From Tubulanus polymorphus (lineage: Eukaryota; Animalia; Nemertea), in the NCBI RefSeq assembly GCF_964204645.1, contig NC_134028.1:15445653-15509652 (forward strand): a stretch of 64,000 nucleotides of DNA. Reading direction: 5' to 3'. The notes beneath the pieces are model-generated. The model had not been told where the DNA came from and ran no database searches. It was given only the letters and a program-made list of their open reading frames with translations. The translations under genes and the position numbers were made by a program. Below are positions 1 to 25,781 of the stretch, one piece after another (position 1 is the stretch's first letter; each line of letters begins with the position of its first letter).

Positions 1-225
1 GAGCGCCAGCGATGGCAAAAGCCGAGCGTCAATTTTAGCGTTGGTGACATTGTTTTAGTGATGGACCACACACTCCCTAGGTGTTGTTGGCCGCTAGGCC
101 GAGTTATTAGCGTACATCCGGGAAAGGACAATAAAGTCAGGGTTGTTACCTTGAAGACAAGGTCGCAAAATTCTCTTGTACGCCCAGTTGATAAACTTGT
201 GCACCTCGAGTGTGTACATAAGTAA
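1..225 (+). CDS. C-terminal end of BEL/Pao LTR-retrotransposon Pol (post-integrase region), partial
   Basis: Frame 1 reads ERQRWQKPSVNFSVGDIVLVMDHTLPRCCWPLGRVISVHPGKDNKVRVVTLKT...VRPVDKLVHLE, with TAA at 223-225. The GDxVL / WPLGRV / PGxDxxVR / RPxxKL motifs are typical of BEL/Pao. Confidence 0.9.
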   Translation, partial: ERQRWQKPSVNFSVGDIVLVMDHTLPRCCWPLGRVISVHPGKDNKVRVVTLKTRSQNSLVRPVDKLVHLECVHK

Positions 226-2408: not shown

Positions 2409-5400
2409 GAAAGTTTAGAGGCGCAGCGCATGAGAAATGTAACTTACAAGCTAAGAAAATTAATTTTGTACCAGTTATATTTCATAATCTATCAGGATAT
2501 GACGCACATTTATTTATCAAACAGTTATGTTATAAGATAGAAGAAATCAATAATGAAATAGAAAGATTAAATTCAAATAGATCAAAAGCTAAAATACCAA
2601 CTTATAAATTTAGAATGTTAGCTAAAACATCTGAGAATTATATATCATTCCAATTTGGGTGTTTAAGATTTATAGATTCATATAGATTTTTAAACAGTTC
2701 ATTAGATAACTTATCAAAATCATTAGTTGATGATGAATTAAAAATATTAAAACAACACTACCCAAATAATGATGATTTCCAATTAATGAGATATAAAGGA
2801 GCAATTCCATATTCTTTCTATAAAAATCATAATGATTTTAACATAACTGAATTATTAAAAGAACAATTCTATGATGAATTAAAAAATGAATATGTTAAAG
2901 ATGAAGTATATAATAGAACATTGAATATTTGGAATCATTTCAAAATAGAAAATCATGGGCAATTAGTAGATTTATATTTAAAATCAGATGTATTATTATT
3001 AACTGATATATTCGAAAGGTTTAGAGATGTAAACCTAAAATATTTTAACATTGATCCTTGTCATTGTTATTCTAGCCCAGGTTTAACATGGGATTGTGGA
3101 TTAAAATTTACAGATATAAAAATGGATTTGTTAACAAATATAGATCAATTATTATTATTTGAAAAATCTATAAGAGGAGGAGTTTCAGGTGTATTAGGTG
3201 ATAGATATTTCAATGTAAATGATAACCCCGGATATAAGTTATTATATATAGATGCAAATAATTTGTATGGTTGGGCAATGATGGAACCACAACCTTATGG
3301 AGTATTTGAATTAACTGAAGTTTTACAGAATGAAAATAATGATAAATTTGATTGGAAGAAAAGAATCCTAGATATTGCAGATGATTCAGATACTGGTTAC
3401 TTCTTTGTTGTAGATTTAGAATATCCTGAAGATAAAAAATTTAAATCTAGAAATCTAGCTTACTGTCCCGAACATAAAACTGTAACTCATGAAGAATTAT
3501 CAAATTATCAAAAAAGAACTAAACCCGAAAATCATATTCATACAGAAAAGTTAATGGTAACTCAAGAAGATAAATATAATTATGTAGTACATTATAGAAT
3601 GTTAAAGTTTTATTTGAATCAAGGAATGATTCTAAAAAAAGTACATAGATATATTTCATTTAGTCAATCTAAGTGGTTAGAAAAATATATAGATTTTAAC
3701 ACCAAACAGAGAACTGAAGCTAAAACTGATTTCGAGAAAGATTTCTTCAAGTTAATGAAAAATGCATTCTATGGTAAGACTTGTGAAAATATTAGAAATA
3801 GAAATGATATTGAGTTAGTTAGTAATGGCAAAAGGATAAGGCATTTACAATCATATCCTAAGTTTTTAGGTAACAGAATATTTGATGAAAATTTAGCTGC
3901 AGTTAAGATGAGAAGAACATCAATGAAATTTAATAAAACAATCTATGTTGGCGCTTCAGTTTTAGAATTATCAAAATTACTAATGTATGAATTTTATTAT
4001 AACATATTACAACCACTTTTTGGAGAAAAACATATAGAAATACTATATTTTGATTCTGTAACAGCTGACCCCCTAATATTTTTAAAATATAATAATCACA
4101 TGTTAATTAGAAGAATTTCAGAAATAATTCAAAAACAAAATGAATGTTATATTTCGTATGGTGAAAAAGAATTAATACAAATAAATGGATTAATGGATGT
4201 TTGGACAAAAAATGGATTGGTGAAATTAAAGAATATAATTAGACATAAAACGAATAAGAAAATCTATAGAGTTAGAACTAAATTAGGATTTGTTGATGTT
4301 ACTGAAGATCATAGTTTAATTAAACAAAATGGTGATGAAATAAAACCAACTGATATAAAAATTGGAGATGAATTATTACATAAAAGATTTTACCCAAGAA
4401 TGAATCATATGTCATTTGATAAAATAATTGATAATATTTATAATATAGAACCCGAAACATTGGAAGAAAAAGAATATTTTATCAAAGGATTTTTTATGGG
4501 TGATGGTTCAGCAGGTGTGTATAAATATGTTAGTGGAACTAAATATTGTTGGTATTTATGCAATCAAGATTTGAAATTATTAGAAAGAATTAAAAAATAC
4601 TGTGAACAAGTTTATTCACATAAAACATTTAGAATCGGGGATTATATGAAATCATCACAATGTTATAGAATACATGTGAATAATACTAAAGATTTTGCAA
4701 TTAAATATAATGATGAATTCTATATTCATGCAATAGTGAAAAGTAATACTTCAACTAAAGAAAAGATAGTTCCAGATTATGTAATAAATGCAAAAGATAA
4801 TTTAAGAAAATGGTTCTTCATTGGATTTTATACTGCAGATGGTTCAAAAAACTATACAAAACAAAAACTATATCTTTGACACAAAAAGGAAAAGTTGCTG
4901 TATCAGGATTAAATATATTATGCAATTCATTAGGATTTAATATGTTAGTTAATATAAGAAAGGATACACCAAATGTATTTCAATTAACGCATGTAGAAAA
5001 TGTACTAACTGAAGAAGCCAGAGATTTATTTGAAATATCCAATCATACAGAATATGTTTATGATTTAACAACTGAAGATGGTACATTTAATTGTGGATTT
5101 CCATTAATCATAAAAATACAGATTCTTACATATTAAAGATAAAAACTGATAACATAACAGATTATTTAAAAACATTAAAACATCATTTTGATTTTAGTAA
5201 CTATCCTAAAGATCATGAATTGTTTAGCAATGATAATAAAAAAGTTCCAGGGAAGTTTAAGGATGAATTAGGTGGTGAAGAAATGATAGAGTTCATAGGT
5301 ATTAGATCTAAAATGTATTCATATAAAACTAAAGAACATGAAGCTAAAAAGTTAAAAGGAATAACCAAAAGTGTAGTAGAAAAGAATATTCATTTCAAAG

Positions 5401-5648
5401 ATTACATCAATTGTATATTCAAAGAAGAAGTTAGAAAACATAAGATGAGATGTTTAAGATCTGAAGATCATGAAATGTTTATTGAAGAAATTGAAAAGAT
5501 AAGTTTGAATCCATTTGATGATAAAACATATATTCTGGATAATGGAATTCATACAGTTGCTTATGGTTTCAATTTAGATGAATACTTAAAATTTAAAAGA
5601 GAAGAAACAAAAGAGAACGAGATAATGAAAAGAATTCTAACGTGTTAA
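2409..5648 (+). CDS. polB: Protein-primed family B DNA polymerase, 5' truncated, intein-containing, two frameshifts
   Basis: Motifs FHNLSGYDAH, FIDS, YLKSDVLLL, YIDANNLYG, KLMKNAFYGK, YFD|TDS, GKFKDE, RSKMY and KLKGI. Confidence 0.95.
4055..5117 (+). mobile_element. Intein with LAGLIDADG homing endonuclease at the PolB YxD|TDS site
   Basis: Starts SVTADP after YFD. Contains block B VTEDHSL, LAGLIDADG motifs GFFMGDGS and GFYTADGS, and block F YVYDLTTEDGTF. Ends KN followed by TDS. It is 355 codons if single A's are restored near 4866 and 5113. Confidence 0.93.
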
Positions 5649-5677
5649 TCAAATTTTAATGAAAATATGTATAATAA

Positions 5678-6028
5678 ATGGAGAGTAAACAAACACACAG
5701 TGAGAACAACAAATTATTTCTAGATAGAATTAAAAATATAACAAATGTAAAATCTGTAGATTATAAATTCAAAAAATTAACAGAATTAACAATTCATAAG
5801 AAATATCTAATTACAAATATTGATACAGTTACTAATAACTATGGAGATAAATTAGTTATACACTTAAAATAAGGATTAAAAGGAAATACACATAAATTCA
5901 GAACATATTTACCAGATAGATTTCATAGATTATCAAGCGAAGACTTAGAAGAATTATGTTCTGGAGATTTCTATTTCGTATACAAAGGTAAGAATGAAAA
6001 AGGGCACCATGAAATAGATTTCGAATAA
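5678..6028 (+). pseudogene. Small Polinton protein, possible OB-fold ssDNA-binding protein (frameshifted)
   Basis: Paralogous to B 24233-24586; ~117 aa when repaired. Function is inferred from its pattern and its position after PolB. Confidence 0.5.
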
Positions 6029-6045
6029 GAAAATATGTAAAATAA

Positions 6046-6803
6046 ATGGTAGAATTAAAAGAATACAGATTATTTGTTGATTCAAGAAAACTTACAAATT
6101 ATAAATCTCATAATTTACTAGTACAATTAGATAGAGAATTTAAGAATTCTGTAGATTTAAAATTAGTTAATATAAGTTTATGTAATTCTTTTTACAATAT
6201 ATCGGATAAAACTATTGAAGATAATACTGTTTTAATTCATATTAGAAATATGGATAAATGGTATCATCTATTTCTAAGACCAGGATTATATAATTTAGAT
6301 ACATTAGCGCAGGAAATTAATAGAAGAGCTCGGTTGAAAATGGGTGCATCTGCTGGATTTGGATTAAAACTGATTAAAAGTGATAGCTCCGATAAAATAA
6401 GAATAAAATTAGGTAATGAAGATCAACATGCATTTATGGTAAAAAACCTATAGCTAAATTGCTAGGAATTGCACCAGATATTGTTACAGGAAACATAGAT
6501 GGTAATTCAAACTTAATACCTTACACGCACTTTTATATTTATTGCAATTTAATTGATCCTACAAAAACTTTCGAAGCAATTAAAGAAACAATTTGTAGTT
6601 CTAGTATACTAAATATTTTACCACTAAAAAATGTTAAACAATTTGGAACTCAAATAAATTATAATTTAACAGAATGTGATTTTAAACCTTGCATTCCACA
6701 TTTCAATAATTTCAAATTAGAAATAAGAAATCATAATGGTTATTTAATTGATTTGAATAACTTTCCTGTGATATATGAATTAGTTATAAGATGTAGAGAG
6801 TAA
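6046..6803 (+). CDS. Minor capsid protein (penton, single jelly-roll), internal stop at 6451-6453
   Basis: LFVDSR...ISLCNSFYNIS...FYIYCNLID...LEIRNHNGYLIDLNNFPVIYELVI matches the Polinton minor capsid pattern. Confidence 0.75.
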
Positions 6804-6819
6804 TTTTTTCACTATATAA

Positions 6820-7176
6820 ATGAATATAACTGTTGGACCGAGTATATGTTTTGGGTTTGATTTTAAACGTGAGAAAGAAATAAAATTTAACATTACTGAT
6901 GTAATTACACATATCAAAAATATTACATTTTCTAATGAAACAACATTTGAGTATGAAACAACAATAGATAAAGAAACTTTTAATGTAGAAAAGATTACTA
7001 ATTTAATTAGAGAATCTTTAAGATTTTATGAATTAGATGAAGATTTTATCATCGATGATATTAAAAAAATAATAATTGAAATATATACAAATGAAACTAG
7101 TAATGAAATAAATGTTGAATTAATCATCACTAAGATAACTAAATATTTTGAAGATAGTAATTTTTTTGATAAATAA
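6820..7176 (+). CDS. Hypothetical acidic protein (118 aa)
   Basis: Intact ORF with paralogs at 8396-8752 and 25194-25535. Confidence 0.8.
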   Translation: MNITVGPSICFGFDFKREKEIKFNITDVITHIKNITFSNETTFEYETTIDKETFNVEKITNLIRESLRFYELDEDFIIDDIKKIIIEIYTNETSNEINVELIITKITKYFEDSNFFDK

Positions 7177-7398
7177 ATGAGTGATAATAAGTGGATAATA
7201 ACTGGATTATATAATGGCGCATTACTATCAGTTGGAACTGTTGGTTATTCAATGGTATTAAAAAAAGTATTCAAAATGGGAAGTGTTAATGTTGATAGAT
7301 TTGATATAAATGATATCTTAAAATTAACATTAGCAGTTACTCTATCTAATTTAACTATTGATTATTTAGAAAAACAAAAATATATACCTCCCATATAA
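7177..7398 (+). CDS. Small hydrophobic protein (73 aa)
   Basis: Identical protein at 8753-8974 and 25536-25757. Confidence 0.85.
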   Translation: MSDNKWIITGLYNGALLSVGTVGYSMVLKKVFKMGSVNVDRFDINDILKLTLAVTLSNLTIDYLEKQKYIPPI

Positions 7399-7422
7399 AT
7401 GCATAATTATTTTGCTAAATAA

Positions 7423-7845
7423 ATGGCTTCTGCAATTATAACTATTATAGGATCGGCAATTGTTAACGCTTTAGCATTTACTGGTGGTGGATATTTATTT
7501 AAGCATATTGATAAAAATGGTTCATTAACAGAACAAAAAAGACATAACTTAGCATTAGAGAAATACAATAAAGCAGCAGAAGAATACAGAGAAAAACGAC
7601 AAAACTATATGGATTACATCAATAAAGAATTATATGATCAGAAGATTTCACATAGAGATTTTCAATCAGTTGATGATGCAATGAGTTTATATAACGCGGT
7701 AACCAATAAAGAAAAATTACATCTATACAAACCTAAATTATCAGATTATTATACCCCAAGTAAAGAACAACAGAAATATGAAATAATTTGGATTTTAGGT
7801 GGAACTGTTATTGTTATATTTGTAGCATATAAATTTACTAATTAG
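7423..7845 (+). CDS. Membrane-associated protein with EQKRHNLALE motif (140 aa)
   Basis: Hydrophobic N-terminus and C-terminal TM segment. Paralogs at 8999 and 25782. Confidence 0.8.
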   Translation: MASAIITIIGSAIVNALAFTGGGYLFKHIDKNGSLTEQKRHNLALEKYNKAAEEYREKRQNYMDYINKELYDQKISHRDFQSVDDAMSLYNAVTNKEKLHLYKPKLSDYYTPSKEQQKYEIIWILGGTVIVIFVAYKFTN

Positions 7846-7864
7846 TAATTTTTTTTCTAAATAA

Positions 7865-8299
7865 ATGGAAGATAAAGTTGATAATATTGATATTATTCCT
7901 CATGATATAAATAAAACTAAATTAAAAACATATTTAGAAAAACAAATATTAGAATTTGAAAGTGACTTAAAGATAAAAAAGAAAAAATATTTAAAACGTA
8001 AAATTATATATTATTTGATTATAAGTGGTTCGGTTACAATTAGTTCTGTAATTACATTTCTAGCAATATTCAGTCCATTAACACCTTTAGCTATATCAAT
8101 TGGTGTATTAGGATTAAGTTCAAGTGTTTTAACTGGTATAAGTTCAAAATTAAATATAAAAAGTAATAAAGAAAAAATTAAAACTAATATAAAAGAAATT
8201 AATAAATTAAAGAATACACTAGATTATATAATAAGTTTAAATGGCCATATAACAGTTAAAGAACAAGATAAATTATTAAAAGAATTAGTTAATTATTAA
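7865..8299 (+). CDS. Two-TM coiled-coil protein (144 aa)
   Basis: Central hydrophobic hairpin. Paralogs at 9433 and 26225. Confidence 0.8.
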   Translation: MEDKVDNIDIIPHDINKTKLKTYLEKQILEFESDLKIKKKKYLKRKIIYYLIISGSVTISSVITFLAIFSPLTPLAISIGVLGLSSSVLTGISSKLNIKSNKEKIKTNIKEINKLKNTLDYIISLNGHITVKEQDKLLKELVNY

Positions 8300-8395
8300 T
8301 TTTTTTATTATATAAATGGGGTTTCCAAAAGCTTTCCAATATAATAAATCAATAAGATGTTATAAGATGTAGAGAGTAATTTTTTCACTATATAA

Positions 8396-8752
8396 ATGAA
8401 TATAACTGTTGGACCGAGTATATGTTTTGGGTTTGATTTTAAACGTGAGAAAGAAATAAAATTTAACATTACTGATGTAATTACACATATCAAAAATATT
8501 ACATTTTCTAATGAAACAACATTTGAGTATGAAACAACAATAGATAAAGAAACTTTAAATGTAGAAAAGATTACTAATTTAATTAGAGAATCTTTAAGAT
8601 TTTATGAATTAGATGAAGATTTTATCATCGATGATATTAAAAAAATAATAATTGAAATATATACAAATGAAACTAGTAATGAAATAAATGTTGAATTAAT
8701 CATCACTAAGATAACTAAATATTTTGAAGATAGTAATTTTTTTGATAAATAA
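8396..8752 (+). CDS. Duplicate 118-aa protein
   Basis: Near-identical to 6820-7176. Confidence 0.8.
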   Translation: MNITVGPSICFGFDFKREKEIKFNITDVITHIKNITFSNETTFEYETTIDKETLNVEKITNLIRESLRFYELDEDFIIDDIKKIIIEIYTNETSNEINVELIITKITKYFEDSNFFDK

Positions 8753-8974
8753 ATGAGTGATAATAAGTGGATAATAACTGGATTATATAATGGCGCATTA
8801 CTATCAGTTGGAACTGTTGGTTATTCAATGGTATTAAAAAAAGTATTCAAAATGGGAAGTGTTAATGTTGATAGATTTGATATAAATGATATCTTAAAAT
8901 TAACATTAGCAGTTACTTTATCTAATTTAACTATTGATTATTTAGAAAAACAAAAATATATACCTCCCATATAA
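8753..8974 (+). CDS. Duplicate 73-aa hydrophobic protein
   Basis: Identical to 7177-7398. Confidence 0.85.
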   Translation: MSDNKWIITGLYNGALLSVGTVGYSMVLKKVFKMGSVNVDRFDINDILKLTLAVTLSNLTIDYLEKQKYIPPI

Positions 8975-8998
8975 ATGCATAATTTTTTTGCTAAATAA

Positions 8999-9413
8999 AT
9001 GGCTTCTGCACTTATAACTATTATAGGATCGGCAATTGTTAACGCTTTAGCATTTACTGGTGGTGGATATTTATTTAAGCATATTGATAAAAATGGTTCA
9101 TTAACAGAACAAAAAAGACATAACTTAGCATTAGAGAAATACAATAAAGCAGCAGAAGAATACAGAGAAAAACTATATGGATTACATCAATAAAGAATTA
9201 TATGATCAGAAGATTTCACATAGAGATTTTCAATCAGTTGATGATGCAATGAGTTTATATAACGCGGTAACCAATAAAGAAAAATTACATCTATACAAAC
9301 CTAAATTATCAGATTATTATACCCCAATTAAAGAACAACAGAAATATGAAATAATTTGGATTTTAGGTGGAACTGTTATTGTTATATTTGTAGCATATAA
9401 ATTTACTAATTAG
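8999..9413 (+). pseudogene. Duplicate 140-aa protein with an 8-bp deletion
   Basis: gaaaaacgacaaaactat is shortened to gaaaaactat near 9170. Confidence 0.8.
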
Positions 9414-9432
9414 TAATTTTTTTTCTAAATAA

Positions 9433-9867
9433 ATGGAAGATAAAGTTGATAATATTGATATTATTCCTCATGATATAAATAAAACTAAATTAAAAACATA
9501 TTTAGAAAAACAAATATTAGAATTTGAAAGTGACTTAAAGATAAAAAAGAAAAAATATTTAAAAAGTAAAATTATATGTTATTTGATTATAAGTGGTTCG
9601 GTTACAATTAGTTCTGTAATTACATTTCTAGCAATATTCAGTCCATTAACACCTTTAGCTATATCAATTGGTGTATTAGGATTAAGTTCAAGTGTTTTAA
9701 CTGGTATAAGTTCAAAATTGAATATAAAAAGTAATAAAGAAAAAATTAAAACTAATATAAAAGAAATTAATAAATTAAAGAATACACTAGATTATATAAT
9801 AAGTTTAAATGACCATATAACAGTTGAAGAACAAGATAAATTATTAACAGAATTAGTTAATTATTAA
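9433..9867 (+). CDS. Duplicate 144-aa two-TM protein
   Basis: Near-identical to 7865-8299. Confidence 0.8.
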   Translation: MEDKVDNIDIIPHDINKTKLKTYLEKQILEFESDLKIKKKKYLKSKIICYLIISGSVTISSVITFLAIFSPLTPLAISIGVLGLSSSVLTGISSKLNIKSNKEKIKTNIKEINKLKNTLDYIISLNDHITVEEQDKLLTELVNY

Positions 9868-9883
9868 TTTTTTTATTATATAA

Positions 9884-11196
9884 ATGGGGTTTCCAAAAGC
9901 TTTCCAATATAATAAATCAATTAAATATAATATTTCTGCAATAGATTTTAATAAAGATATTACATATAGAAATGAAGTTTTAAATTCATTAATTGATTTA
10001 TATATTTATGTTACTGAAAGTAATAATTTTCATGTAAAGATGGAAAATATATTTCATGTGTATACAATTAATTTCAAAACTTTAAATGAGGCAAAACAAT
10101 GGTTATTAAAATCTAATATGAAGTATTGGCAGAACCAATTAAATTTTGCTGGTTATTGTGCAACAACAGGGTGTGGAATAAGTTGGCATGATCATTTAAA
10201 AAAACCAAGTTTACCATTGATGTTGTCACTTTTTAGATTTCATACTTATTTTCAAATAAAATTAATATTAGATGAATTAGAATGTTCTTTACCAGGTTCA
10301 AAATATTTTAAAGAATTGAATAATAATATTAATTTTTCTAAGTTTTATAAAATATGTAATGAATTTAATATTAATTCAAATGAAGATTTTAGAGCAAAAA
10401 TTGAAACAATGGGTGGATTAGGAATATTATATACTAAAGAATTTGGAAAAATAATGACAAATACAGATTTAGGAACACTAAATTGGAATGAATTACCAAA
10501 ATATTATAATAATATTCAACAACAAAACAATAATGGTTGGGTTAATTTCATTTTAGAAAATAGTGAAGGTTTTACTAAAGCCGGGATACAAAGAATAAAT
10601 CAATCAATTAGAACTTATTTGATATGTATTTTAGGTGTGCAAGTTGAAACAAGATCCCCAATAGTTGGAAATGATAACACTTCATTCGATGCGCAGAAAC
10701 AATTTAAAGGATTATTTGAAGATTCAATTCATAATGATAAAAATAGATCGATTCCAGAAAACATTGTAAGATATCAAAATTATTTAGATAAATCTCATGT
10801 AAGACTAAATTATTGTATAGGCCCTAATCTATTAATTATTTCTAATGATTTAGTATTAAAGATGGGAAATATAATTGGTTACATCTAATTAAAACTGCAA
10901 CAATAAATAGTTCATTTGGATTAAATGATATAAATAAAAAGATTATTACTGCTCCAAAGTTAATGGAAGGTGAACAAAATAAAAAACATATTCAATCAAC
11001 AGAAACTAAAACTAAGAATATTAAATTAAATAATGATTCTAAACCGGATTATAATACATCAGAAAATATTAAAACTGATAATATTCAACATGAAATAATT
11101 AAAACTGATAATGATAATAAATCCCATGAAAATACTAAATTAGCTTTAACTTGTATAGGAATTGTAATCGGAGGAATATTATATTTTAAATTTTAA
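9884..11196 (+). pseudogene. ~440-aa Polinton protein of unknown function with C-terminal TM (frameshifted)
   Basis: The 334 and 77 aa ORFs join by comparison with B 26676-27999. Confidence 0.75.
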
Positions 11197-11211
11197 TTTT
11201 TTATTATATAA

Positions 11212-12665
11212 ATGGATGAAGAAATTCCATTGGATACTTTTGGTGACGCCCCTGGTATAAGTGATGAACCACAACCTGATTTTAATGAAACTAATATTGA
11301 TAATGATGATGAATCAGCATATAATTCTAATTTAGCAGATAGTGGTTCTAAAGCCCCATCAACAGATGAATTTGATAGAAGAACTAGATTGAGAATAAAT
11401 CCTGAAAATGAAAATCAAGGTTTATCAAGACAAAATTTAGAAAATATTGAATTTATGTATGATTTTCAACATGTATTTAAAGATTCAGGATATAATATAA
11501 ATGCCAGAGGCGCCAGACTTTTAGTACAAGAATTAAAATCTTTAGATGGTGAATATTATTATCATTTGAAAGATGATTATTATATTGATATCTCTTATAA
11601 AAAACAAAACAAAATATTAGCAGAATCAACTTTGCTTAAGTCTGACTCATTACTATCTAGAATTAAGAGAATAAGAAATAGTAATGAAATAGAAGATGTA
11701 ACACAAGAAGAAATTATTAAAAATGAAAGAGTATTTAAACAAAGAATTAATGAATTATTTGAAACAATCGATAATAATTTAGAAACAGAAACAACTTCTG
11801 AACAGAATGTAACTTCCAAAACTAGTAAACTTAAATCAAACACTGAAGTTCAAACTGAAACACTTTTACCGAATGGATTACTTGATGCAACAGATCAAGA
11901 AATAGAAGCTTTAAGTATGTTTTCTAAAAAAAATAATTACAGAAATAATAAGTATACGAAATGAAGCCGATAAAATTGCGCGCGAAAAACATATTAGATA
12001 TGATAAAATTAAACCTTTAGAAAATAAATTATTTGACACCAGAAAAGAATTAGAACAATTAAAATTAGATAGAGAATTTAAAGTTATTGAAGAAATTGAA
12101 TCTAAAAAGAGAAATGCATATTTAGAAAAAGAAATTGATGATTTAGAATATAACATAGAATTTCAGAAAGAAAAAATAAAATTATTATTAAAATCATATG
12201 ATTATTGTATTAATAGATTAAAAGTTGTTGTTAAAGAGTTAATACTAAAACCAAATTCTGACATATCACTAAAAGATAGAATAGAATTATTATTTAAGTT
12301 TGAAGGAATAACAATTCTTTCAATTCTAACAGCTGTAACTATGTTATTTACAACAATTGGTTTAGCAATATCAAATGCTTTGAAATCTACTCCTACTCCA
12401 AATAAAACAGATAAACCCCCAGAAAATAATAATTCTATACAAGATAAAGTTAAGGATGGTTTAAAGAAATTAGCAAAATATTTATGGGAACTATCTAAAA
12501 AAATCTGCTGCAGCTTTACGAGGAATTATTGCATCAATTGTTGGTTTTATATTGAAATCTGCTGGGAATATTCTTAACTTTGCTGCTGAACATATTATTT
12601 TATTTTTGATTACAGTTGTAAGTGCAATTATTTTTGGATTAGTAAACATGATTAAAAATAAATAA
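11212..12665 (+). pseudogene. Long acidic/coiled-coil protein with C-terminal hydrophobic helices (frameshifted)
   Basis: Fragments are colinear with B 28016-29387 (LLPNGLLDATDQE; MLFTTIGL...KLAKYLWELSKK). Confidence 0.75.
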
Positions 12666-12686
12666 TTAATTTTTTTTGTTAAATAA

Positions 12687-13926
12687 ATGAGTGGGAGTTA
12701 TATAAGTCCTTCTAAGATTTCTAGAATATCTAATGCTATTAAAGCAGAAAGATCACATCATATAATTACTCATAACCCTTCTAATATTAATCCCGATGAA
12801 ACTTTATACGTCAGAATCCCTCGATTAACACAAAATACTTTTTATGCTCCAAATAGTATTTATTTATCAGCCGATATAAAAGTTACTGGTCATGATAATA
12901 ATTATGTTGTCGATAATATTGGGAAATATTTGATTAAAAAGTTAACTATAAAGATTGGTCCAGAAACAGTTTTCTCATTAGATGATTATAATTTATTTAT
13001 GCATTATAAAGATTTATGGTTAACTAAAGAAAATAGAAATAATATGATATTTCAAGGAATCCAATCAGAAAACCAAAATAAATTAAGATCAGAAGCACAT
13101 AATGCAATATTAACTAATTCTATAGATAAATTGATAAAAAGTATATATGGAAGCAAATATAAAATTCCATTAGACTTTGAATTGATAAATACTAATGCAC
13201 CTTTATAAATACGCAATTCAAGATGTTATATTCGAAATAATATTTGCTCCTGTTAATGAAATTGTAATATCTAGCGTTAATAAAGATATGTGTTATAAAT
13301 TATCGAATATATGTTTAGAATATGATACAGTAACTGATGAAAATATTTCAAGTATAATTCAAACTCATTACAATAAAGGATTTTCATTATTATATGTTTA
13401 TATTGATAAATTTAAAACTGTAACTATTAATGCAAATGATGAAATTATTAATGAGAATAACTTCCCAAGAAGATCTATTAAAGGTATATTAATATTTTTT
13501 ACCATTGCAACATATACTAATGGTGCAATAAATGTTGATAATTATTATAATCCTGAAATAACAAAAGTAGAAATAACTATCGAAGGAATAGCAAATAAAA
13601 TATTTTGTCAAGGAATGAGAATGATTGATCAATGGCCAGAAATTAGAAAACATTTTATGAATGAAAAAGTAAAATCATCTGAAAATTGTAATATTAATCA
13701 AATTGATTATTATACCGGTAATAAATATGCATTATGGTTAGATTTTAGAACAACAGAGGATAATTCATTACATGGTTCTGGAAAAAAATTACAAAACACT
13801 AAAGATGGAATACAATCATTCATGACAAAGAATAAAGGAATCAAAAATTTCAAAATGCACATTTATATTATATCTGACGCACAATTAAATATTGTAAATT
13901 CACAATTAGATAGTGTTACGTATTAA
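12687..13926 (+). CDS. Major capsid protein (double jelly-roll), frameshifted
   Basis: ~410 aa, beta-rich: THNPSNINPDETLYVRIPRL...NICLEYDTV...PRRSIKGILIFF...YALWLDFRT...LHGSG. Highly conserved in all three copies. Confidence 0.8.
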
Positions 13927-13958
13927 AATTTTAACTATAAGAAAAATTTATATAATAA

Positions 13959-15127
13959 ATGGAAGGTGGAATATATGAAATACAAACTCCAAGTGAAATG
14001 ATATCAGATATATATTATATATTACCTTATGATGAATAAATTAAGTATTTTGGAGATTACTTTAATCAATTCAAATATAGAATAAATAAAATAAAAGATA
14101 ATATTGAAACTAAAATAGAAGATAAGAATGATATTGAATATAAAATAGAAGATGATATTGAATATAAAATAGAAGATAGTAATAATATTGAAACTAAAAT
14201 AGAAGATGTAACAGCATCTACATCTTATAATATACCCTCTACATATGATATTGAATCAAAAAAGACAAATGAAAAATATTGTGACGTATGTAAACAGTTT
14301 AAAAGTTATAAGAATTGGGCAACTCATCTTAATTCACTCAAGCATAAGAAAAATAAGAATAAGACTATAAATGAATTGAATAATGATAGTGAAATTGATA
14401 ATGATAATGTTAAAGAAGATAAATATTGTGAAGAATGTGATAAATATATAAGTCGTAGTAATTTTTCAAAGCATAAATTAACACAAATACATTTGGATAA
14501 TATAGAAAGAAATATATGTGAAAAGTGTAATGTTGTTGTATTACCTAAAGATAGAATTAAACATGATAATTCTTTTGAACATACAATAAAAGCTGCTGAT
14601 TCAAATAACCTTTATAGAGTACCAACTGCATTTTTTGATATCGAAAATAATTATCATAGGAAATTATATAGATCAATTTTTATCGATTATGTAAGAAATA
14701 ATCCAAAACAAGTATTATCAGATATTGAAACTGGTCGGACGCGTATAAAAATTGATCTATATAATTATTGGGGTATACATTATTTCATAAAATTTAAAAA
14801 TATAGATTTTTTAACAGAATTGAAAAAGTTGCTGCTAATGATAATATAAGTGATAACTTTTATGAAATAATTCAATACTACAGTTATGAAGATTTTTCAC
14901 AGGATGTTATAAATAAAATAAGAAATGATGCAAAAAATAAATATAAAAATATAAGTGAAGACAAATTAAACCAATATATTTATTTAACTTATGAATTGTT
15001 TGCTAAGGGTTTGAATAGTGTTGGTTATCATACTAAACTATTAGGTGAAAGAAAATCACAAGAATTAAAAGATGCATGGCTCAAATTGTTTTCAGAATTA
15101 GAATCAGAAAAGTTATTTAAAATATGA
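13959..15127 (+). pseudogene. Copy-A-specific zinc-finger protein (disrupted)
   Basis: TAAATG start. Fingers YCDVCKQF..WATHLNSLKH, YCEECDKY..SKHKLTQIH and ICEKC..KHDNSFEH. Confidence 0.6.
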
Positions 15128-15133
15128 ATATAA

Positions 15134-15747
15134 TACCCCCTTGTGTCTTTATTGTCTTTAGTAGGCTTAGTACTTTTAGTACATAAAGAATAAATCTTTA
15201 TTTTATTAGTAGTAAATAAAATTATTTTTAAAACTACTAAACTACTAAAGACAATAAAGACATAAATATATATATATTACTGTTTCAATAATTATATTTA
15301 TTCATCTGATGGATTTTATATATTACTGTTTCAATAATTAAATCTATTTATGGCGCATATTTATTATATATTACTGTTTTAATAATGATAAATATCATAG
15401 ATTTATCATATATAAAAATTATTTATATATTTATTTTTCTAAGTACTAATAAAATGAAGATTTATTCTTCATGTACTAAAAGTACTAAAAGTACTAAAGA
15501 TAATAAAGACATAACAAACACATATAGATGTAATAAATATCATAGATTTATTTATCTCACAGATTTATTATATATATTTGATTCAGTAATGATAAATCTA
15601 TATGTGTTTGTTATGTCTTTATTATCTTTATTATCTTTAGTAGTTTAGTAGTTCTATTTTATTTTTAAAGTATTAATAATATGAAGATTTATTCTTTATG
15701 TACTAAAAGTACTAAAAGTACTAAAGATAATAAAGACATAAGGGGTA
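15134..15747. repeat. Fold-back region with long terminal and nested inverted repeats between convergent gene blocks
   Basis: tacccccttgtgtctttattgtctttagta...acttttagtacataaagaataaatctt pairs with aagatttattctttatgtactaaaagt...tactaaagataataaagacataaggggta. Confidence 0.8.
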
Positions 15748-15798
15748 TCAGGTATTAGGGTATCTAATAGGGTATCTAATACATAGATATATAAATAG

Positions 15799-16410
15799 TT
15801 ATTTTATAAACTTATATTCATAAGGAAATTGTAGTCTCAGTAATAATTTTGAACCTTTATTATTCTTTAATTTATTCATATAATCATCATGTAATTCAGT
15901 AGGTATAATTTGATTTTCTTCCAATGATTGTTGCATAGATTTTCTATCTTTGATATAAAATATAACTAGAAATCTTATATTCTCCCTAAAGTCTTTAACA
16001 ATTGAATTATATTTTTGATTTAAAACCCATGTTGTTATCCCAAAATGTCTCCCAGAGAAAGCTAAGTAACATAACTCACTTTCTCTCACTTTTGAATCAT
16101 GTAAATTTGCGCAATCATCTACAATGAATAATGTATTTGATCCATTATAAGTATCAATTGCTATTTTTATACAATTATCTAAATTTTCTTTTACTGTTTT
16201 AGGATCTAATATAATAAACTTTTTCATCTTAAATATATCTCTATTATATGTTTTATTCATTTCATAAGTAGGACAGAATAATATTATATTATCAAAATGA
16301 TTCTTATGAATAGTTTCTAACAAATCTAATATGAAATGTGTTTTACCACAATTGGTTACTCCAGTAACTAACATATTATGCGGTTCAAATATAAATAAAT
16401 CTTTATTCAT
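15799..16410 (-). CDS. A32-like genome packaging ATPase
   Basis: Walker A GVTNCGKT, Walker B LFIVDDC and SGRHFGIT..LNQ. The start overlaps the integrase stop. Confidence 0.92.
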   Translation of the reverse strand: MNKDLFIFEPHNMLVTGVTNCGKTHFILDLLETIHKNHFDNIILFCPTYEMNKTYNRDIFKMKKFIILDPKTVKENLDNCIKIAIDTYNGSNTLFIVDDCANLHDSKVRESELCYLAFSGRHFGITTWVLNQKYNSIVKDFRENIRFLVIFYIKDRKSMQQSLEENQIIPTELHDDYMNKLKNNKGSKLLLRLQFPYEYKFIK

Positions 16411-17546
16411 GTATTCTTTTAATTTTACTAGATAAAATCCATTCATTAAATTTATCATCATATCCTTTATATTTCACCAAAGAATACTTTTTTCCTTTAA
16501 GAGTTTTTGTTTTCAATACTTTTTCTATTTTGTATTCTATTTCATCTGGATTTGGTACAAGTGATAATTCTTGTTCATAGAAATAACCTAATATTTCTTC
16601 ATCTTTTAAATCTTCTAGTTTATAAACAAATGGTTTTGTTAATATTATCTTTTTAATCTTGAATATTTCTTCTGTAAAATTAGGAGTATAACCTTTATAA
16701 AATGTTTTTCTATATTTAGATATTCTAACGTGTTGTCCTATTTTAAATTTAGGTTCTAACGTGTTGTCCTATTTTAAATTTAGGTTCACCGGAATCATGT
16801 GTAACAAACGCTCCATATAAATTATTCCAAACTATTTCTGAATTATCTTCTTTTCTAGCTTGTATAGGTTTCATATTTATAGAACTATGTTTAGAATTAT
16901 TATAACCTTTCACTAAATCATCTAATATATCGATATATTTATATGTTTCATTTGCAGTAAAATATTTCCACATTCTAGTTTTCAATGTTTTATTAAATCT
17001 TTCTATAATAGATGCTTTTTTATCTGAATGTGTTGAAAAATAATCTACATCGTTATCAGATAATAGTTTTTTAAAATGTTTGTTATAGAATTCCTTACCT
17101 TCATCAAATTGTATCTTATCTGGAATAGCTTCTTTAAATATAGATTTAAAAGCATTAGTAACTTCTAAACCTGTTTTATTTTTGATTGGTATACTCCATG
17201 CGTATCTACTGAATATGTCTATAACATTTAATATCCAGAAATATCCTTTGTTGTATTCTCCTAAGTTCTTCCTGTCAATTAAATCAGCTTGCCATTGTTG
17301 ATCAATATATGAAACCATAACTTTTCTTGTTAAATAAGTTTTATCCATTTTCTTGTGGATTTGATATGTTGGTTGATTTTGTAACCATGATTTCAATTCA
17401 CTATATTTTATATCACCGTGTGGGTGCCGTATGGCGCCATTTTCATTATCAGATTTAATTTTACCCCATAATTCTGTAACGTTAGAATATGATACTTCAC
17501 TTTCTGGGTTATAATATAAATCTCTTAAATATTGTTCTTTTTTCAT
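16403..17546 (-). CDS. Retroviral-like integrase with C-terminal chromodomain (frameshift from a ~31-bp tandem duplication near 16723-16785)
   Basis: WQADLID, IDIFSRYAW, QFDEGKEF and KASIIERFNKTLK. Chromodomain YKIEKVLK..KGKKYSLVKYKGYDDKFNEWI. Confidence 0.93.
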
Positions 17547-17549
17547 CTT

Positions 17550-17918
17550 CTTTTAAAATAATAATAATTTAGATTTAGTTTCAATGACTTTATGATTTGA
17601 CTTATTTTCTGGTATGATAGGTTTATTGTCATTGGAATCATCTTTATCATCAGATTTGAATTTTGATTTATATATTACACCGGATAATATAATAACTGTT
17701 ACTAATCCAATTGTAATATATAATTTATAATTACTTCCAGCATTAGAAGAATCAGATGGATTATTATTTGAATTAATATCAGATAATGTCTGTGATTCAT
17801 TTATATCAGTTAATTTCTTTTTCTTAGCTTTTTTTAATTCTGAAGATCTTTTACCTAATTCTCTTGCCCATTTAATTTGTTTCTCGGATGTAGCCTTTTT
17901 CTTAACTCCATCACTAAT
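17550..17918 (-). pseudogene. ~122-aa basic/TM protein, start codon mutated
   Basis: Colinear with B 33721-34089. Confidence 0.65.
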
Positions 17919-18513
17919 TTATTTTACTTAATTTTTGTTCTGATTCATTTTCTGTTTCACGGTTTGGTTGTAGTACATCTGTTTCATTCTTACCTGATTT
18001 ATATTCCATAGGCTTGATGTTCGAAAATGTTATGACGCCAGTAGAAATTAATGTCATAACCGATCCTAATTGAAATGAAGCATAACCAACCCATTTTTAT
18101 AATTCAGTCATAACTAAATAGTCATTTTTCAAATCACTATATAATTTATTTTCATCATTAATTGGTATTAACTGGTTACATAACTTAGAATAACATTTGA
18201 CAATACCATCTGAAATAGAATCATTTATTCTAGCTAATCTAGCTTCTTCATAAATCTTAAAATATTTTATTACTTTATCGGGTTTCATAGAGTCTAATTC
18301 TTGAAAAGTAATAATTCTATTTAAAAACTCTTTAGATTTTCCACCAGCAATTAATAATTCAAGATGGTGTTTACAATATAAATAGTATTCATAATCTATA
18401 TTGTTATTAACTTGAATAGAATTAGAAACAACTGTATCCTTATTATCACTTATGCCCAAATCATCTAATGTCTTTTCAATATCAATACTATTCTTATTAG
18501 ATTTCGTTGACAT
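17913..18513 (-). pseudogene. ~200-aa protein with C-terminal hydrophobic helix, premature stop
   Basis: Colinear with B 34082-34690 and C 55887-56754. Confidence 0.7.
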
Positions 18514-18759
18514 TTATATTAGAGAAAAAAGCGAAAAAAATATAATAAGTATTCTTCAAATGATACCAGTATATCTTTAGATTAATACTAGCTTAGTTAA
18601 AGGTAAAGAATTTTAGTATTAGTTATTGTTTTTTAGTATTTTTTATTTGTGATATAAAGTATTCTTTTTTGAAAAGAAAATATTAAAAATATAATAGAAT
18701 TCACTAGCTAGTTGAAGTTATTGTTTTTTTAATATTTTTTATTTAAAATCTATTATTCT

Positions 18760-19431
18760 TTAACCACTAATTAAAGACTCAACGTATTGTTCATTATTTG
18801 GATCATTGTTCCATTGATCAATAAATTTCTTTGCCTTTGTTAACTGTTCTAAATATAACTGTAAATCTAAATTATTAGATTTAATTATGTTTTCCTTCTT
18901 TTCTAAAGCTCTTAAATTTTTCCAATTCCAAATAAGTTTTTTATTGTATTCATCATTCATGTCAAATTTAGAAATCGGCAACACGTGATCAATATGAAAG
19001 TATTCACCATAATTATCTATATTCATTTTATCATCGAATTGATATATTATCATCCATGATATGAAAAATTCATCTGTGCAACCCAATAAATTAGATAGTG
19101 TTTCTGAATGTGTTTCTTTGTTGAATAATTGTGTTAATCTAGACCGTAAACATTGTTTTAATCTAAAATTAAGATCTGTTTGATATCTTTCTCTCATATA
19201 TTCTGTCATATAATCATTATAAGCTTCTCTATTATCTTCTCGATATTGTTTGGTATATAGTTTAGTACAAGTTTTACAGCAATATTGAAAACCATCTTTG
19301 CTAATCTTACGCTTATTAAATTCTGTTATAGCTAATTTATCTAATTCACATTTAGAACACTTCTTGTAATATATATTTATAACACCAGTGTTATTTGTTA
19401 TATTAATACTTTGTGGTTGTTCTGATTCCAT
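18760..19431 (-). CDS. Zn-ribbon plus HNH-type endonuclease (223 aa)
   Basis: CSKC...CKTC, then LGC, NYGEYFHIDHVLPISKF and NWKNLRALEKKENIIKSN (His-Me finger). Confidence 0.8.
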   Translation of the reverse strand: MESEQPQSINITNNTGVINIYYKKCSKCELDKLAITEFNKRKISKDGFQYCCKTCTKLYTKQYREDNREAYNDYMTEYMRERYQTDLNFRLKQCLRSRLTQLFNKETHSETLSNLLGCTDEFFISWMIIYQFDDKMNIDNYGEYFHIDHVLPISKFDMNDEYNKKLIWNWKNLRALEKKENIIKSNNLDLQLYLEQLTKAKKFIDQWNNDPNNEQYVESLISG

Positions 19432-19449
19432 TTATTATACATATTTTTT

Positions 19450-20035
19450 TACTAAATTGATTTTAGAAGTTCAATGATTTATATCATGTATTATTTCAAT
19501 CACACTTTACTAACACTTTTAATGTTTAAAAATCTAACTCACACAAATATGAATATTGAAATAATGTTGTAAATATATACTTTTATATCTATTCTATAAG
19601 AGCTCACCCTTTACTCACACTTTTATATTGAATAATCTATCAATTTATATGTTATTCATATATATTTTATTCATGTATATAAATATTTTAAGAGTAATAG
19701 GGATAATGGGCTTTCATATCAAAGGTTGAAAGGGCTAGTGAGTAAAAAATGAAAAAGATGAAAATAATAACAATTTCTACTTGAATTAGGAGTGAAACTC
19801 ATAAAAAATGAAAAATAATTCTCACACGCTCGAATTTATTTCACTCACACTTTACTCACAATTTTTTTCTAGCGAGTAAAAATGAAAAATAAATTCGAGC
19901 GTGTGAGAATTATTTTTCATTTTTTATGAGTTTCGCGACTAATTCAAGTAGAAATCGTTATTATTTTCATATTTTTCATTTTTTATGAGCTCGACCTTTC
20001 GACCTTTGGTATGAAAGCCCATTATCCCTATTACT
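19450..20035. repeat. Right TIR of copy A ending in a 343-bp hairpin (19693-20035)
   Basis: Homologous to B TIRs: agtaatagggataatgggctttca ... tgaaagcccattatccctattact. Confidence 0.9.
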
Positions 20036-20451: not shown

Positions 20452-20872
20452 AGTAATAGGGATAATAGGCTTTCAGGCCAAAGGTCGAAGGGTCGAGCTC
20501 GTAAAAAATGAAAATAATAATAATTTACAGTTGAATTAGTCGTGCACACTCCTAATTCAACTGTAAATTATTATTATTTTCATTTTTTACTCACTCACCC
20601 CTTCAACCTTTAACCTGAAAGCCTATTATCCCTATTACTCTTAAAATATTCATATATATATATATAAACATAATTTACATGAATAACATTTAAATTGATA
20701 GATTATTCAATATAAAAGTGTAAGCTCTTATAGAATAGAGATATAGATATATTTCCAACATTATTTCAATATTCATAGTTGTATGAGTTAGATTTTTAAA
20801 CATTAAAAGTGTTAGTAAAGTGTGATTGAAATAATACATAATATAAATCATTGAACTTCTAAAATCAATTTA
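20452..20872. repeat. Left TIR of copy B, starting with a 188-bp hairpin (20452-20639)
   Basis: Reverse complement of 35631-36004 with small indels. Confidence 0.92.
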
Positions 20873-20893
20873 AAAAAAAAATTTAGTATTAAA

Positions 20894-23800: not shown

Positions 23801-24203
23801 TCCCGGTAAATTCAAAGATGAATTAGGTGGTGAAGAAATGATTGAATTCATCGGTATTAGATCTAAAATGTATTCATATAAAACTAAAGAACATGAAGCT
23901 AAAAAGTTAAAAGGAATAACAAAAAGTGTAGTAGAAAAGAATATTCATTTCAAAGATTACATCAATTGTATATTCAATGAAGAAGTTAGAAAACATAAAA
24001 TGAGATGTTTAAGATCTGAAGATAATGAAATGTTTATTGAAGAAATTGAAAAGATAAGTCCAAACCCATTTGATGATAAAAGATATATTTTAGATGATGG
24101 AATTCATACAGTTGCTTATGGTTGTAATTTAGATGAATACTTAAAATTTAAAAGAGAAGAAACAAAAAAGAACGAGATAATGAAAAGAATTCTAACGTGT
24201 TAA
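20894..24203 (+). pseudogene. polB: pPolB polyprotein: Zn fingers, putative terminal protein, OTU-like protease, EndoVII-like insert, exonuclease and polymerase; frameshifts and ~730-bp internal deletion
   Basis: YCPTC..H, INVQNEDDKCFLWAI...ENHYMWI, YGDFES, CYYC..RDHDHLNGKFRGAAHENCN, YIDANNLYG, then directly DTDS at 23670. The presumed ATG at 20894 reads ATA. Confidence 0.92.
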
Positions 24204-24232
24204 TCAAATTTTAATAAAAATATGTATTATAA

Positions 24233-24586
24233 ATGGAGAGTTAACAAACACACAGTGAGAACAACAAATCATTTCTAGATAGAATAAAAGATACTTCAAA
24301 TATCAAATCAGTAGATTATAAATTTAAGAAGTTAAAAGAATTAATAATCCATAAGAAATATCTAATTACAAATATTGATACAGTTACTAACAAATATGGA
24401 GATAAATTAGTTATACACTTAGAATATGAAGGATTAAAAGGAAGTACATATAAAATCAGAACATATTTACCAGATAGATTTCATAGATTATCAAGTGAAG
24501 ATCTAGAAGAATTATGTTCTGGAGATTTCTATTTCGTATACAAAGGTAAGAATGAAAAAGGCCACCATGAAATAGATTTCGAATAA
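24233..24586 (+). pseudogene. Small protein (possible SSB), early stop
   Basis: atggagagttaa versus atggagagtaaa in copy A; the remainder is open. Confidence 0.55.
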
Positions 24587-24603
24587 GAAAATATGTAAAA
24601 TAA

Positions 24604-25176
24604 ATGGTAGAATTAAAAGAATACAGAATATTTGTTGATTCTAGAAGACTTACAAATTATAAATCACATAATTTACTAGTACAATTAGATAGAGAATTTA
24701 AGAATTGTGTAGATTTAAAATTAGTTAATATAAGTTTATGTAATTCTTTTTACAATATATCGGATAAAACTATTGAACACAGAGCCTTTTTAATTTTTGA
24801 TACAGGTAAAAATGAATGGTTCTATATATATTTAAAACCGGGGTTATATAATTTAGATACAATAGCACAAGCTATTACACCAAACTTAATACCTTACACA
24901 CATTTTTATATTTATTGCAATTTAATCGATCCTACAAAAACATTCGAAGCAACTAAAGATATAACTTGTAATTCTGGTTTATTAAACATTTTATCATTGA
25001 AGAATGTTAAAGAATTTGGAACGCAAATAAATTATAATTTAACAGAATGTGATTTCAAACCATGCATTCCTCGTTTTAATAATTTTAGATTAGAAATTAG
25101 AAATCATAATGGGCACTTAATTGATTTAAATAATTTCCCTGTAATTTATGAATTTGTTATAAGATGTAGAGAGTAA
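24604..25176 (+). CDS. Minor capsid protein with shorter central insert (190 aa)
   Basis: Paralog of 6046-6803 lacking ~60 central residues. Confidence 0.75.
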   Translation: MVELKEYRIFVDSRRLTNYKSHNLLVQLDREFKNCVDLKLVNISLCNSFYNISDKTIEHRAFLIFDTGKNEWFYIYLKPGLYNLDTIAQAITPNLIPYTHFYIYCNLIDPTKTFEATKDITCNSGLLNILSLKNVKEFGTQINYNLTECDFKPCIPRFNNFRLEIRNHNGHLIDLNNFPVIYEFVIRCRE

Positions 25177-25193
25177 TTTTTTTCACTATATAA

Positions 25194-25535
25194 ATGAATA
25201 TAACTGTTGGACCGAGTATATGTTTTGGGTTTGAATTTAAACATGGTAAAGAAATGAGAATTAAACTAAATGATGTAATTACTGATATAAAAAGTAAATC
25301 ATTTAACAATGCAACAATGATTAATAAAGAAAATTATAATATAAAAAAAGTAATTGATTTAATTAAATCACCTTTAGAATATTATGAATTAAATGAAGAC
25401 GGAATTATTGATGATATTAAAAACATATTAACCAAAATATATGATAATCATAAAAGTAGTAATGAAATGAATGTTGAATTAATCATCACTAAGATAACTA
25501 AATATTTTGATGATATTAATTTTTTTGATAAATAA
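25194..25535 (+). CDS. Hypothetical protein (113 aa)
   Basis: Ends match A 6820-7176; the middle is divergent. Confidence 0.8.
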   Translation: MNITVGPSICFGFEFKHGKEMRIKLNDVITDIKSKSFNNATMINKENYNIKKVIDLIKSPLEYYELNEDGIIDDIKNILTKIYDNHKSSNEMNVELIITKITKYFDDINFFDK

Positions 25536-25757: not shown

Positions 25758-25781
25758 ATACGTAATTATTTTGCTAAATAA

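Follow-up and report, generated by a model that had tools for sequence, protein, structure and literature searches.

A LAGLIDADG intein in the polymerase of a Polinton integrated in very likely animal nuclear DNA of Tubulanus polymorphus

In a stretch of 64,000 nucleotides assigned to the nemertean Tubulanus polymorphus (contig NC_134028.1, positions 15,445,653 to 15,509,652 of the forward strand; hereafter the window) the gene for a Polinton's protein-primed DNA polymerase of family B is interrupted within its catalytic motif C by an intein. We consider it the best explanation, with a probability of about 0.8, that a pol-c-type LAGLIDADG intein sits here in a genome which is very likely an animal's, and that this intein likely entered the Polintons by one old jump from a giant virus and has likely been homing among them since. 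The intein and the flanking parts of the polymerase (exteins) are arranged as follows.

2409..4054, plus strand: N-extein of a protein-primed family B polymerase, 5'-truncated, ending in YFD (Pfam DNA_pol_B_2, E 4e-15; 85% identical to the intein-less polymerase P0184)
4055..5117, plus strand: intein coding sequence (Hint splicing domain and two-motif LAGLIDADG endonuclease), about 354 codons with two frame breaks
4055..4318, plus strand: N-terminal splicing region, with the Ser1 nucleophile at 4055-4057 and block B (TEDH) at 4301-4312
4487..4507, plus strand: LAGLIDADG motif 1, GFFMGDG, acidic residue retained
4823..4843, plus strand: LAGLIDADG motif 2, GFYTADG, acidic residue retained, motif also present in relatives
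4863..4867, plus strand: first frame break, in a five-A run (three-frame translation; colinear with the unbroken relatives P0001 and P0163)
5056..5117, plus strand: C-terminal splicing region, with block F (VYDL, containing the Asp) at 5056-5067 and block G with the terminal Asn codon at 5115-5117
5112..5116, plus strand: second frame break, in a five-A run, falling on the penultimate residue
5118..5648, plus strand: C-extein, starting with TDS (81% identical to residues 1188-1363 of P0184)

The polymerase reads ILYFD up to position 4054, passes directly into SVTADP with Ser1 at its head and resumes with TDSYIL from 5118, whereas the intein-less relatives P0184-P0186, which are 81-85% identical, have an uninterrupted YFDTDSYIL. 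The original prediction, made from the sequence alone, had claimed a complete set of intein motifs splitting the catalytic motif, and every motif quoted there could be located, including IRHKTNKKIYRV and MKSS inside the intein. It had also named the insertion point as the pol-c site, and indeed the insertion lies between D and T, exactly where the intein of Mimivirus R322 and other giant-virus and archaeal pol-c inteins reside (YGD/TDS in those polymerases, YFD/TDS in the window, the slash marking the insertion point; PMC549080). The Mimivirus intein has 351 residues and shares with the window intein the Ser at the first and the Asn at the last position, Thr+1, the block B Thr and His and the LAGLIDADG endonuclease (PMC549080). 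The window intein thus has the features of a class 1 intein: Ser1, block B TxxH, the block F Asp, the terminal Asn and, at 5118, Thr+1 of the C-extein. Among 60 relatives Ser1 is nearly invariant, and the T, D and H of block B are invariant.

The assignment as Hint/LAGLIDADG protein, which had likewise been predicted, is borne out by profile and fold comparisons. The first piece of the intein matches TIGR01445 (intein_Nterm, NCBIfam) over residues 2-88 with 26.2 bits, above the curated cut-off of 24.5. For the window piece the Pfam families Intein_splicing (E 6e-5) and LAGLIDADG_3 (E 5e-4, residues 139-214) both stay below their cut-offs, the latter just under; LAGLIDADG_3 exceeds its cut-off in the relatives P0158, P0001 and P0003. 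As a query the intein gave 216 matches in 1388 candidate proteins, with a top E of 1e-98. A structural model of the first 270 residues scored 63 in the predicted local distance difference test (pLDDT), with a confident endonuclease part and a Hint part of low confidence, and the unbroken relative P0158 (44% identical) was modelled with a pLDDT of 92 and a predicted template modelling score of 0.91. The first structural matches of both models are solved LAGLIDADG-bearing inteins (TliVMA, PI-PkoII and PI-PfuI), and I-DmoI superposes at about 2.5 A root-mean-square deviation. For the P0158 model the best matches in the Protein Data Bank (PDB) are full inteins (template modelling score 0.63, E 2e-17); a PDB profile search with alignment A2 gave matches dominated by polymerase exteins. 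To sum up, the region 4055-5117 is a pol-c-type intein with a predicted LAGLIDADG endonuclease domain.

The interrupted gene belongs to the first of three Polinton copies in the window, and a second copy has kept both ends.

2409..20035: Polinton copy 1, the host of the intein, left end lost
12687-13926, plus strand: capsid-like gene of copy 1
15799-16473, minus strand: A32 ATPase of copy 1
16403-17552, minus strand: rve integrase with chromodomain of copy 1
18760-19431, minus strand: His-Me endonuclease of copy 1
19693-20035: palindromic right terminus of copy 1
20452..36004: Polinton copy 2 with its two ends, terminating in AG...CT; identity to copy 1 88-96%
23670..23681, plus strand: empty site of copy 2, D-T-D-S without intein, directly after a deletion in the polymerase
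about 55815-61532: Polinton copy 3, inverted and partial (integrase, ATPase)

Copies 1 and 2 carry the Polinton hallmark genes (Pfam DNA_pol_B_2, rve and Pox_A32). Copy 2 is flanked by a 6-bp target duplication, GAGCGG, at 20446-20451 and 36005-36010, which together with its two ends and AG...CT termini indicates that this Polinton family integrates into the surrounding DNA. The host gene is therefore, as had been stated from the sequence alone, the protein-primed polymerase of an integrated Polinton. The capsid-like gene matches Pfam Capsid_N with an E of 6e-4, under the cut-off; an adenovirus-like protease and a minor capsid gene gave no family match in the open reading frames (ORFs) scanned, no profile or fold search having been aimed at them. 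With regard to the Alpha and Beta polymerase classes defined in PMC8502044, the window polymerase likely belongs to the divergent Beta/Group 1 class, a placement made from features (a weak PF03175 match plus Endonuclease VII). Since the polymerase deletion of copy 2 stops just before D-T-D-S, this copy derives from an empty allele. Within the first 9 bases past the Asp codon 4 differ between copy 2 and copy 1, all of them synonymous, compared with 28 differences in the next 519 bases (p 0.001).

The intein-bearing copy of the window is a broken relic. Its polymerase starts at about 2409, which aligns to residue 638 of the 1363-residue P0184, and about the first 637 codons are lost; copy 1 could therefore not yield a whole polymerase even if the frame breaks in the intein are set aside. 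Both breaks, read earlier as losses in homopolymers, lie in five-A runs, and the insert has a length of 1063 nucleotides (3n+1); with an X placed at each break the translation comprises 354 residues and zero stops. The breaks are either genomic decay or an assembly error. Only 9 of the 27 one-base insertions or deletions that distinguish copy 1 from copy 2 fall in runs of four or more, and real decay therefore seems to be common at this locus.

Intein-plus and intein-minus alleles coexist in this species. Parts of the intein were found in 4 of the 10 listed sequencing runs, all four from one study. We used about 12% of one run (X5), raw Illumina DNA from a separate study carrying the same species label. 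In this data set 89 reads with 54 different starts skip exactly 1063 bases and have the flanks of copy 1, and the intein is also skipped by a further 38 and 70 reads whose letters at the site are different, giving 197 skipping reads in total. As the reads skip exactly 4055-5117, the insertion is precise. Contamination as the source of the intein is ruled out, for among independent reads and contigs some contain the intein and others skip it exactly. The median depth in X5 was 572 for the polymerase bins, 183 for the intein bins (range 47-254) and 4.0 for the flank. Per equivalent of the flank these ratios suggest about 140 copies of the polymerase, a fraction of about 0.3-0.45 bearing the intein; they are rough, as the flank is possibly multi-copy and reads of less than 88% likeness are lost. 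Among the variant positions displayed for the intein 15 of 25 are third codon positions (p 0.006), the 25 being the intein rows within 40 displayed of 760 variant rows. The 12 indel rows listed for X5, out of 33, contain none at the two frame breaks.

The same intein is present in other Polintons. The best 5 of 120 homologues of the intein (out of the 216 matches) are Polinton-type polymerases which hold it at the identical site; P0001 is 62% identical to the window intein and P0002-P0005 are 45-47% identical, the range for Polinton inteins overall being 44-62%. Further Polinton inteins are found in the fragments P0155-P0165, in P0199 and at locus L081. Altogether at least six other Polinton polymerase sequences have this intein at this site, and both acidic residues of the endonuclease are retained in the Polinton inteins wherever the motifs were read. 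P0199 stands for a cluster of 136 members on contigs from 57 kb to 1 Mb; among its 15 listed members there are 7 unbroken intein-bearing polymerases (1537-1539 residues), 5 with an empty site and 3 that do not cover the site. Outside the intein P0199 is 97.8% identical to its intein-less sister P0313, and in a second cluster, of 121 members, P0124 and P0127 are 99.2% identical outside the intein. The differences between P0199 and P0313 are concentrated around the insertion: 14 of 26 lie within -7 to +52 residues of the site and 6 within 7 residues (Fisher p 2e-7). Over the tract from -7 to +52 P0199 is 77-79% identical to its empty sisters, as against 99% upstream and 97% downstream. Such a divergent tract would be the pattern expected of an intein arriving from another family together with its flanking codons; co-conversion of flanks during intein invasion has been noted (PMC10643990).

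Empty sites are abundant among the polymerase relatives. In an alignment-based count of the 120 best relatives 2 have the intein, 84 have a canonical empty site, 29 have a variant empty site (P0191 is a doubtful case) and the remaining 5 do not reach across it. Motif C is unusually variable in the intein-less Polinton polymerases (P0197-P0300), many of which show D/CDS with Cys for Thr, or else D/TDA and D/TDG. These variant sites may reflect escape from the endonuclease. The 150 best representatives at 50% clustering comprise 124 RNA-primed polymerases, 7 topoisomerases II, 1 Polinton-type polymerase and 18 sequences without an extein match, 11 of which are fragments nearest to the Polinton inteins; no new full-length Polinton family emerged from these 150.

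We then compared the intein with those of giant viruses. The intein tree comprised 52 rows, namely 7 Polinton inteins, 40 inteins of RNA-primed polymerases picked by us from 86 and 5 topoisomerase II inteins as outgroup. The 7 Polinton inteins form one branch (support 100/100), and this branch lies inside a branch of 21 rows (98/97) consisting otherwise of inteins from RNA-primed polymerases. The sister group of the Polinton inteins comprises five rows (90/94); for two of them, P0019 and P0029, inteins of 99.7% and 100% identity occur on the giant-virus metagenome-assembled genome (MAG) contigs L005 and L015 of IMG/VR. After the other Polinton inteins, which are the closest relatives, the giant-virus MAG inteins follow with about 37-40% identity to the window intein, and they belong to the same sequence family. 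A scan of viral contigs with a single sequence found nothing; with an alignment it yielded 513 relatives, of which 80 were kept. Named matches of P0158 in BFVD are polymerases of a phycodnavirus, Pandoravirus, Megavirus and Marseillevirus (21-32% identity), and the structure search gave a phycodnavirus polymerase (32%) and the PolB of Megavirus courdo11 (29%). The Atlas matches to P0158 are all below 0.9 and serve as leads only; the first is a viral DNA_pol_B/LAGLIDADG cluster. The giant-virus affinity proposed from the sequence alone is thus upheld by a Polinton clade nested in inteins of RNA-primed polymerases. A recent Mimivirus donor is rejected on the identities and on the monophyly of the Polinton inteins, the comparison with Mimivirus itself being by description, with no Mimivirus sequence among the aligned relatives.

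In an extein tree of 48 rows the 6 intein-bearing rows need 6 changes, and all but the isolated P0005 have empty relatives as neighbours. With an identity of 22-27% to the remaining exteins, that of P0005 falls in a quite different class of polymerases, yet the P0005 intein shares 46-49% identity with the others. The approximately unbiased (AU) test gave p 0.345 for a Polinton intein clade without P0005, and the class jump of P0005 therefore rests on the identities and not on topology. Taken together the comparisons point to one old transfer from a giant-virus polymerase to a Polinton as the likely origin, followed by repeated movement between Polintons. Of the earlier proposal that the intein crossed between polymerase subfamilies during co-infection, the crossing stands, as what looks like a single old event at the base of the Polinton inteins; the route by co-infection is something we infer. 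The same holds for the direction of transfer, since the outgroup was chosen by ourselves, archaeal pol-c inteins were left out and the sample is centred on the query.

Two side observations concern the wider family. The same intein family is found in type II topoisomerases (P0007, P0090, P0091, P0094, P0108, P0377, P0433, P0466, P0484, P0499 and P0500), often at D/TD as well, and jumps between unrelated genes sharing this local motif must therefore have happened. A related intein is present in P0062, named DNA polymerase delta catalytic subunit at NCBI, from the green alga Chloropicon primus; it groups with inteins of virus-like polymerases, and the gene may be an endogenous viral one.

Compared with known systems the window intein differs from the pol-c inteins in its host, a protein-primed polymerase (PF03175) instead of an RNA-primed one (PF00136), in forming a clade of its own and in lying in an element integrated in the nuclear DNA of a likely animal. 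Inteins of viral-like polymerases in algae and protists and the nuclear inteins of Anaeramoeba likewise enter the nucleus in viral DNA, with viruses as the vehicle (PMC10710043); the algal and protist cases are viral-like polymerases, whereas the window has a multi-copy Polinton with coexisting empty alleles in a likely animal. The HNH/VSR inserts of Polinton polymerases are also nuclease domains within the polymerase (PMC10748475), but the window insert possesses a Hint domain, splits the pair of catalytic aspartates and occurs beside empty alleles. The word intein does not occur in the account of these inserts in PMC10748475, and intein invasions have been speculated to be their source (PMC11071308). 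With Polintons/Mavericks (adintoviruses) the window elements have in common the protein-primed polymerase, rve integrase, A32 ATPase, capsid-like gene, terminal repeats and 6-bp duplication (PMC8502044); they differ by the intein, by palindromic termini and in that no protease gene was detected in the ORFs scanned. Metazoan genomes are stated to be without inteins (PMC5784728, PMC8529194), and an iridovirus intein is mentioned in PMC549080. The intein passages of PMC12220804, PMC3671162, PMC5718144, 10.1101/299784, PMC9939771 and PMC13768754 report no Polinton intein, nor did term searches of the supplements of PMC10748475, PMC10710043 and PMC8502044 return one. A prior description, for which a check had been recommended, was thus not found in the literature searched; subscription papers, Repbase or InBase entries and preprint supplements could hold one.

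The steps of a possible mechanism follow the well-known chemistry of class 1 inteins. In intact copies the N-O acyl shift would be the work of Ser1 together with the block B Thr and His, the attack that of Thr+1 and the cyclisation that of the terminal Asn, so that Y-x-D-T-D-S would be restored. Because splicing would restore the two catalytic aspartates, it would be obligatory for the replication of any intein-bearing copy. The freed endonuclease would then cut empty D/TD sites, and repair with an intein-bearing copy as template would transfer the intein plus flanking codons. A polymerase family of about 140 copies, or co-replicating free genomes, could provide empty targets of a kind not available in single-copy animal genes. 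The variant empty sites (D/CDS, D/TDA, D/TDG and the synonymous recoding in the window) are, as a hypothesis, resistant alleles. Splicing and endonuclease cleavage are activities predicted from the residues present, the same class 1 residues being listed for the Mimivirus intein (PMC549080). Going further, one might tentatively see here a natural gene drive in the Polintons of an animal, with splicing in germ cells, conversion of sister copies and recoding of the catalytic motif, which would also have crossed between the two deep polymerase classes and be present in several animal lineages; we would put this at somewhat less than even odds.

Several observations weigh against an intein that came from a giant virus and is actively homing. 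The reading frame of the window copy is interrupted by two breaks, and the penultimate residue, in inteins commonly though not necessarily His, is hidden in the window by the second of them; it is His in P0003 and P0199, Lys in P0124 and P0005 and Ser in P0001. No more than 2 of the 120 best polymerase relatives have the intein. P0124 and P0127 are without a divergent tract, none of their 6 differences lying close to the site, and a donor of the P0199 tract was searched for and not found. The third-codon excess comes from 25 rows among the 40 displayed of 760. In the intein tree the sister grouping with the giant-virus MAG inteins is not starred at 90/94, the AU test does not reject the clade without P0005, and the root and sampling are those described above.

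The main rival is a passive passenger, with homing a thing of the past: the intein would have come into a single Polinton lineage at an early date, possibly in a host other than an animal, and have spread by Polinton replication alone, without homing in the animal. The association does seem to be old, because the GC content of the intein matches that of the exteins (24.5% and 25%) and the Polinton inteins are as diverged as most exteins; the pair P0124/P0127 lacks a conversion tract; and since 89 reads show empty sites with the flanks of copy 1, apparently suitable targets persist. A mere passenger would, however, demand six precise losses or gains in the extein tree, and it fits poorly with near-identical plus and minus pairs in three settings, with a P0199 tract that is local to the site and with the retention of both endonuclease acids in the Polinton inteins read. 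We regard it as rather unlikely, though as the strongest of the competing explanations. Less probable still is a reading in which the endonuclease persists because it serves to attack competing Polintons without the intein, or giant viruses that co-infect, instead of or besides selfish homing. Such a role has been proposed for giant-virus inteins and introns (10.1101/299784), and the unusual variability of motif C in intein-less relatives and the recoded empty sites in this species would suit it; escape from homing or drift explains the site variation equally well, and no giant virus is known for this host.

Homing in an animal presupposes that the DNA is animal, and for this the surroundings of the Polintons are informative.

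1..219, plus strand: DUF5641, the end of a BEL/Pao-type retrotransposon, host flank (Pfam E 8e-20)
38874..44494: THAP domain and pieces of a P-element-type transposase, apparently intron-split (Pfam THAP, Tnp_P_element and TNP-like_RNaseH_N)

The flanks have a GC content of 33-40% and the Polinton elements one of about 24%. We take DUF5641 to be a mark of BEL/Pao elements. Elements of this type have been described from metazoan genomes only (PMC3118150). The Atlas clusters nearest to the polymerase relative P0184 are mostly eukaryotic, most commonly from Arthropoda or Cnidaria, and the sole eukaryote-named entry among the 120 best polymerase relatives is the insect protein P0191. On the basis of the BEL/Pao-type DUF5641 and THAP/P flanks, the 6-bp duplication of copy 2 and the taxa in the Atlas we conclude that the host DNA is very probably animal nuclear DNA, a judgement made from flanking transposon families and polymerase relatives and not from a core animal gene. 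DNA of a protist or another non-animal eukaryote living with the worm would repeat what is already documented for the nuclei of protists and algae, where viral polymerases bear inteins. The window indeed has no conserved single-copy animal gene, THAP and P-type elements are generally known to occur outside animals too, and intein-bearing viral polymerases sit on algal nuclear scaffolds (PMC10710043). Against such an origin stand the DUF5641 flank, the arthropod and cnidarian clusters, the insect match and the finding of both flank and element in the reads of the separate study under the same species label, and we consider it very improbable. An assembly chimera or a giant-virus fragment contaminating a Polinton gene has a negligible chance: many positions of the window copy differ from the bulk of the reads and no bridging of its left junction (2409) was shown, but the intein junctions lie exactly at D/T, the intein is covered as well as precisely skipped in independent reads and contigs, and unbroken intein-bearing Polinton polymerases occur in other data sets.

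Other observations on the flanks and the elements may be added. Positions 1565-2340 of the host flank hold pieces of an apparently intron-split protease gene, presumably of the Ulp1 type judging from its motifs, which is truncated at the start of copy 1 and has no Pfam match. A contig of run X1 spans 2229-2412 and then continues into other sequence. Pieces of a Mutator-like transposase lie in the host DNA at 47716-50100 (Pfam E 0.007). Copy 3 is interrupted by an insertion carrying a 221-bp direct repeat (58450-58900). The Polinton termini (19693-20035, 20452-20640 and 35816-36004) are palindromes of about 190-340 bp which start with AGTAATAGGG and end in its complement; as the terminus itself is palindromic each could fold into a hairpin, an unusual feature for a protein-primed element. 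By the right terminus of both copies there is a free-standing gene for a His-Me finger protein (endonuclease VII/HNH-like; 18760-19431 and 35094-35609, both on the minus strand; PHROGs E 8e-15), a second nuclease of this Polinton family. Copy 1 has a tandem duplication of 1.58 kb containing several small genes (6783-8364 and 8359-9932, 98.5% identical), and short tandem repeats occur within element ORFs at 15229-15741 and 30853-31033, with 24-nucleotide units in copy 2.

An intein allele that is already known is found here in a host protein of a new class, in many copies and with coexisting empty alleles, and the nuclear DNA which carries it is very likely an animal's. The range of the pol-c intein, so far one of RNA-primed polymerases, is thereby widened to protein-primed ones, genes are seen to have passed between giant viruses and Polintons, and the published guess that inteins invade Polinton polymerases (PMC11071308) gains concrete support. 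The intein resides in a viral gene and not in a host gene. It nevertheless points to a route around the absence of inteins from animals, in that a multi-copy virus-like element would furnish the gene and, at the same time, a lasting supply of empty targets. Why animals lack inteins thus becomes a testable question, since splicing and homing could be assayed in an animal nucleus and the plus and minus copies can be counted and dated.

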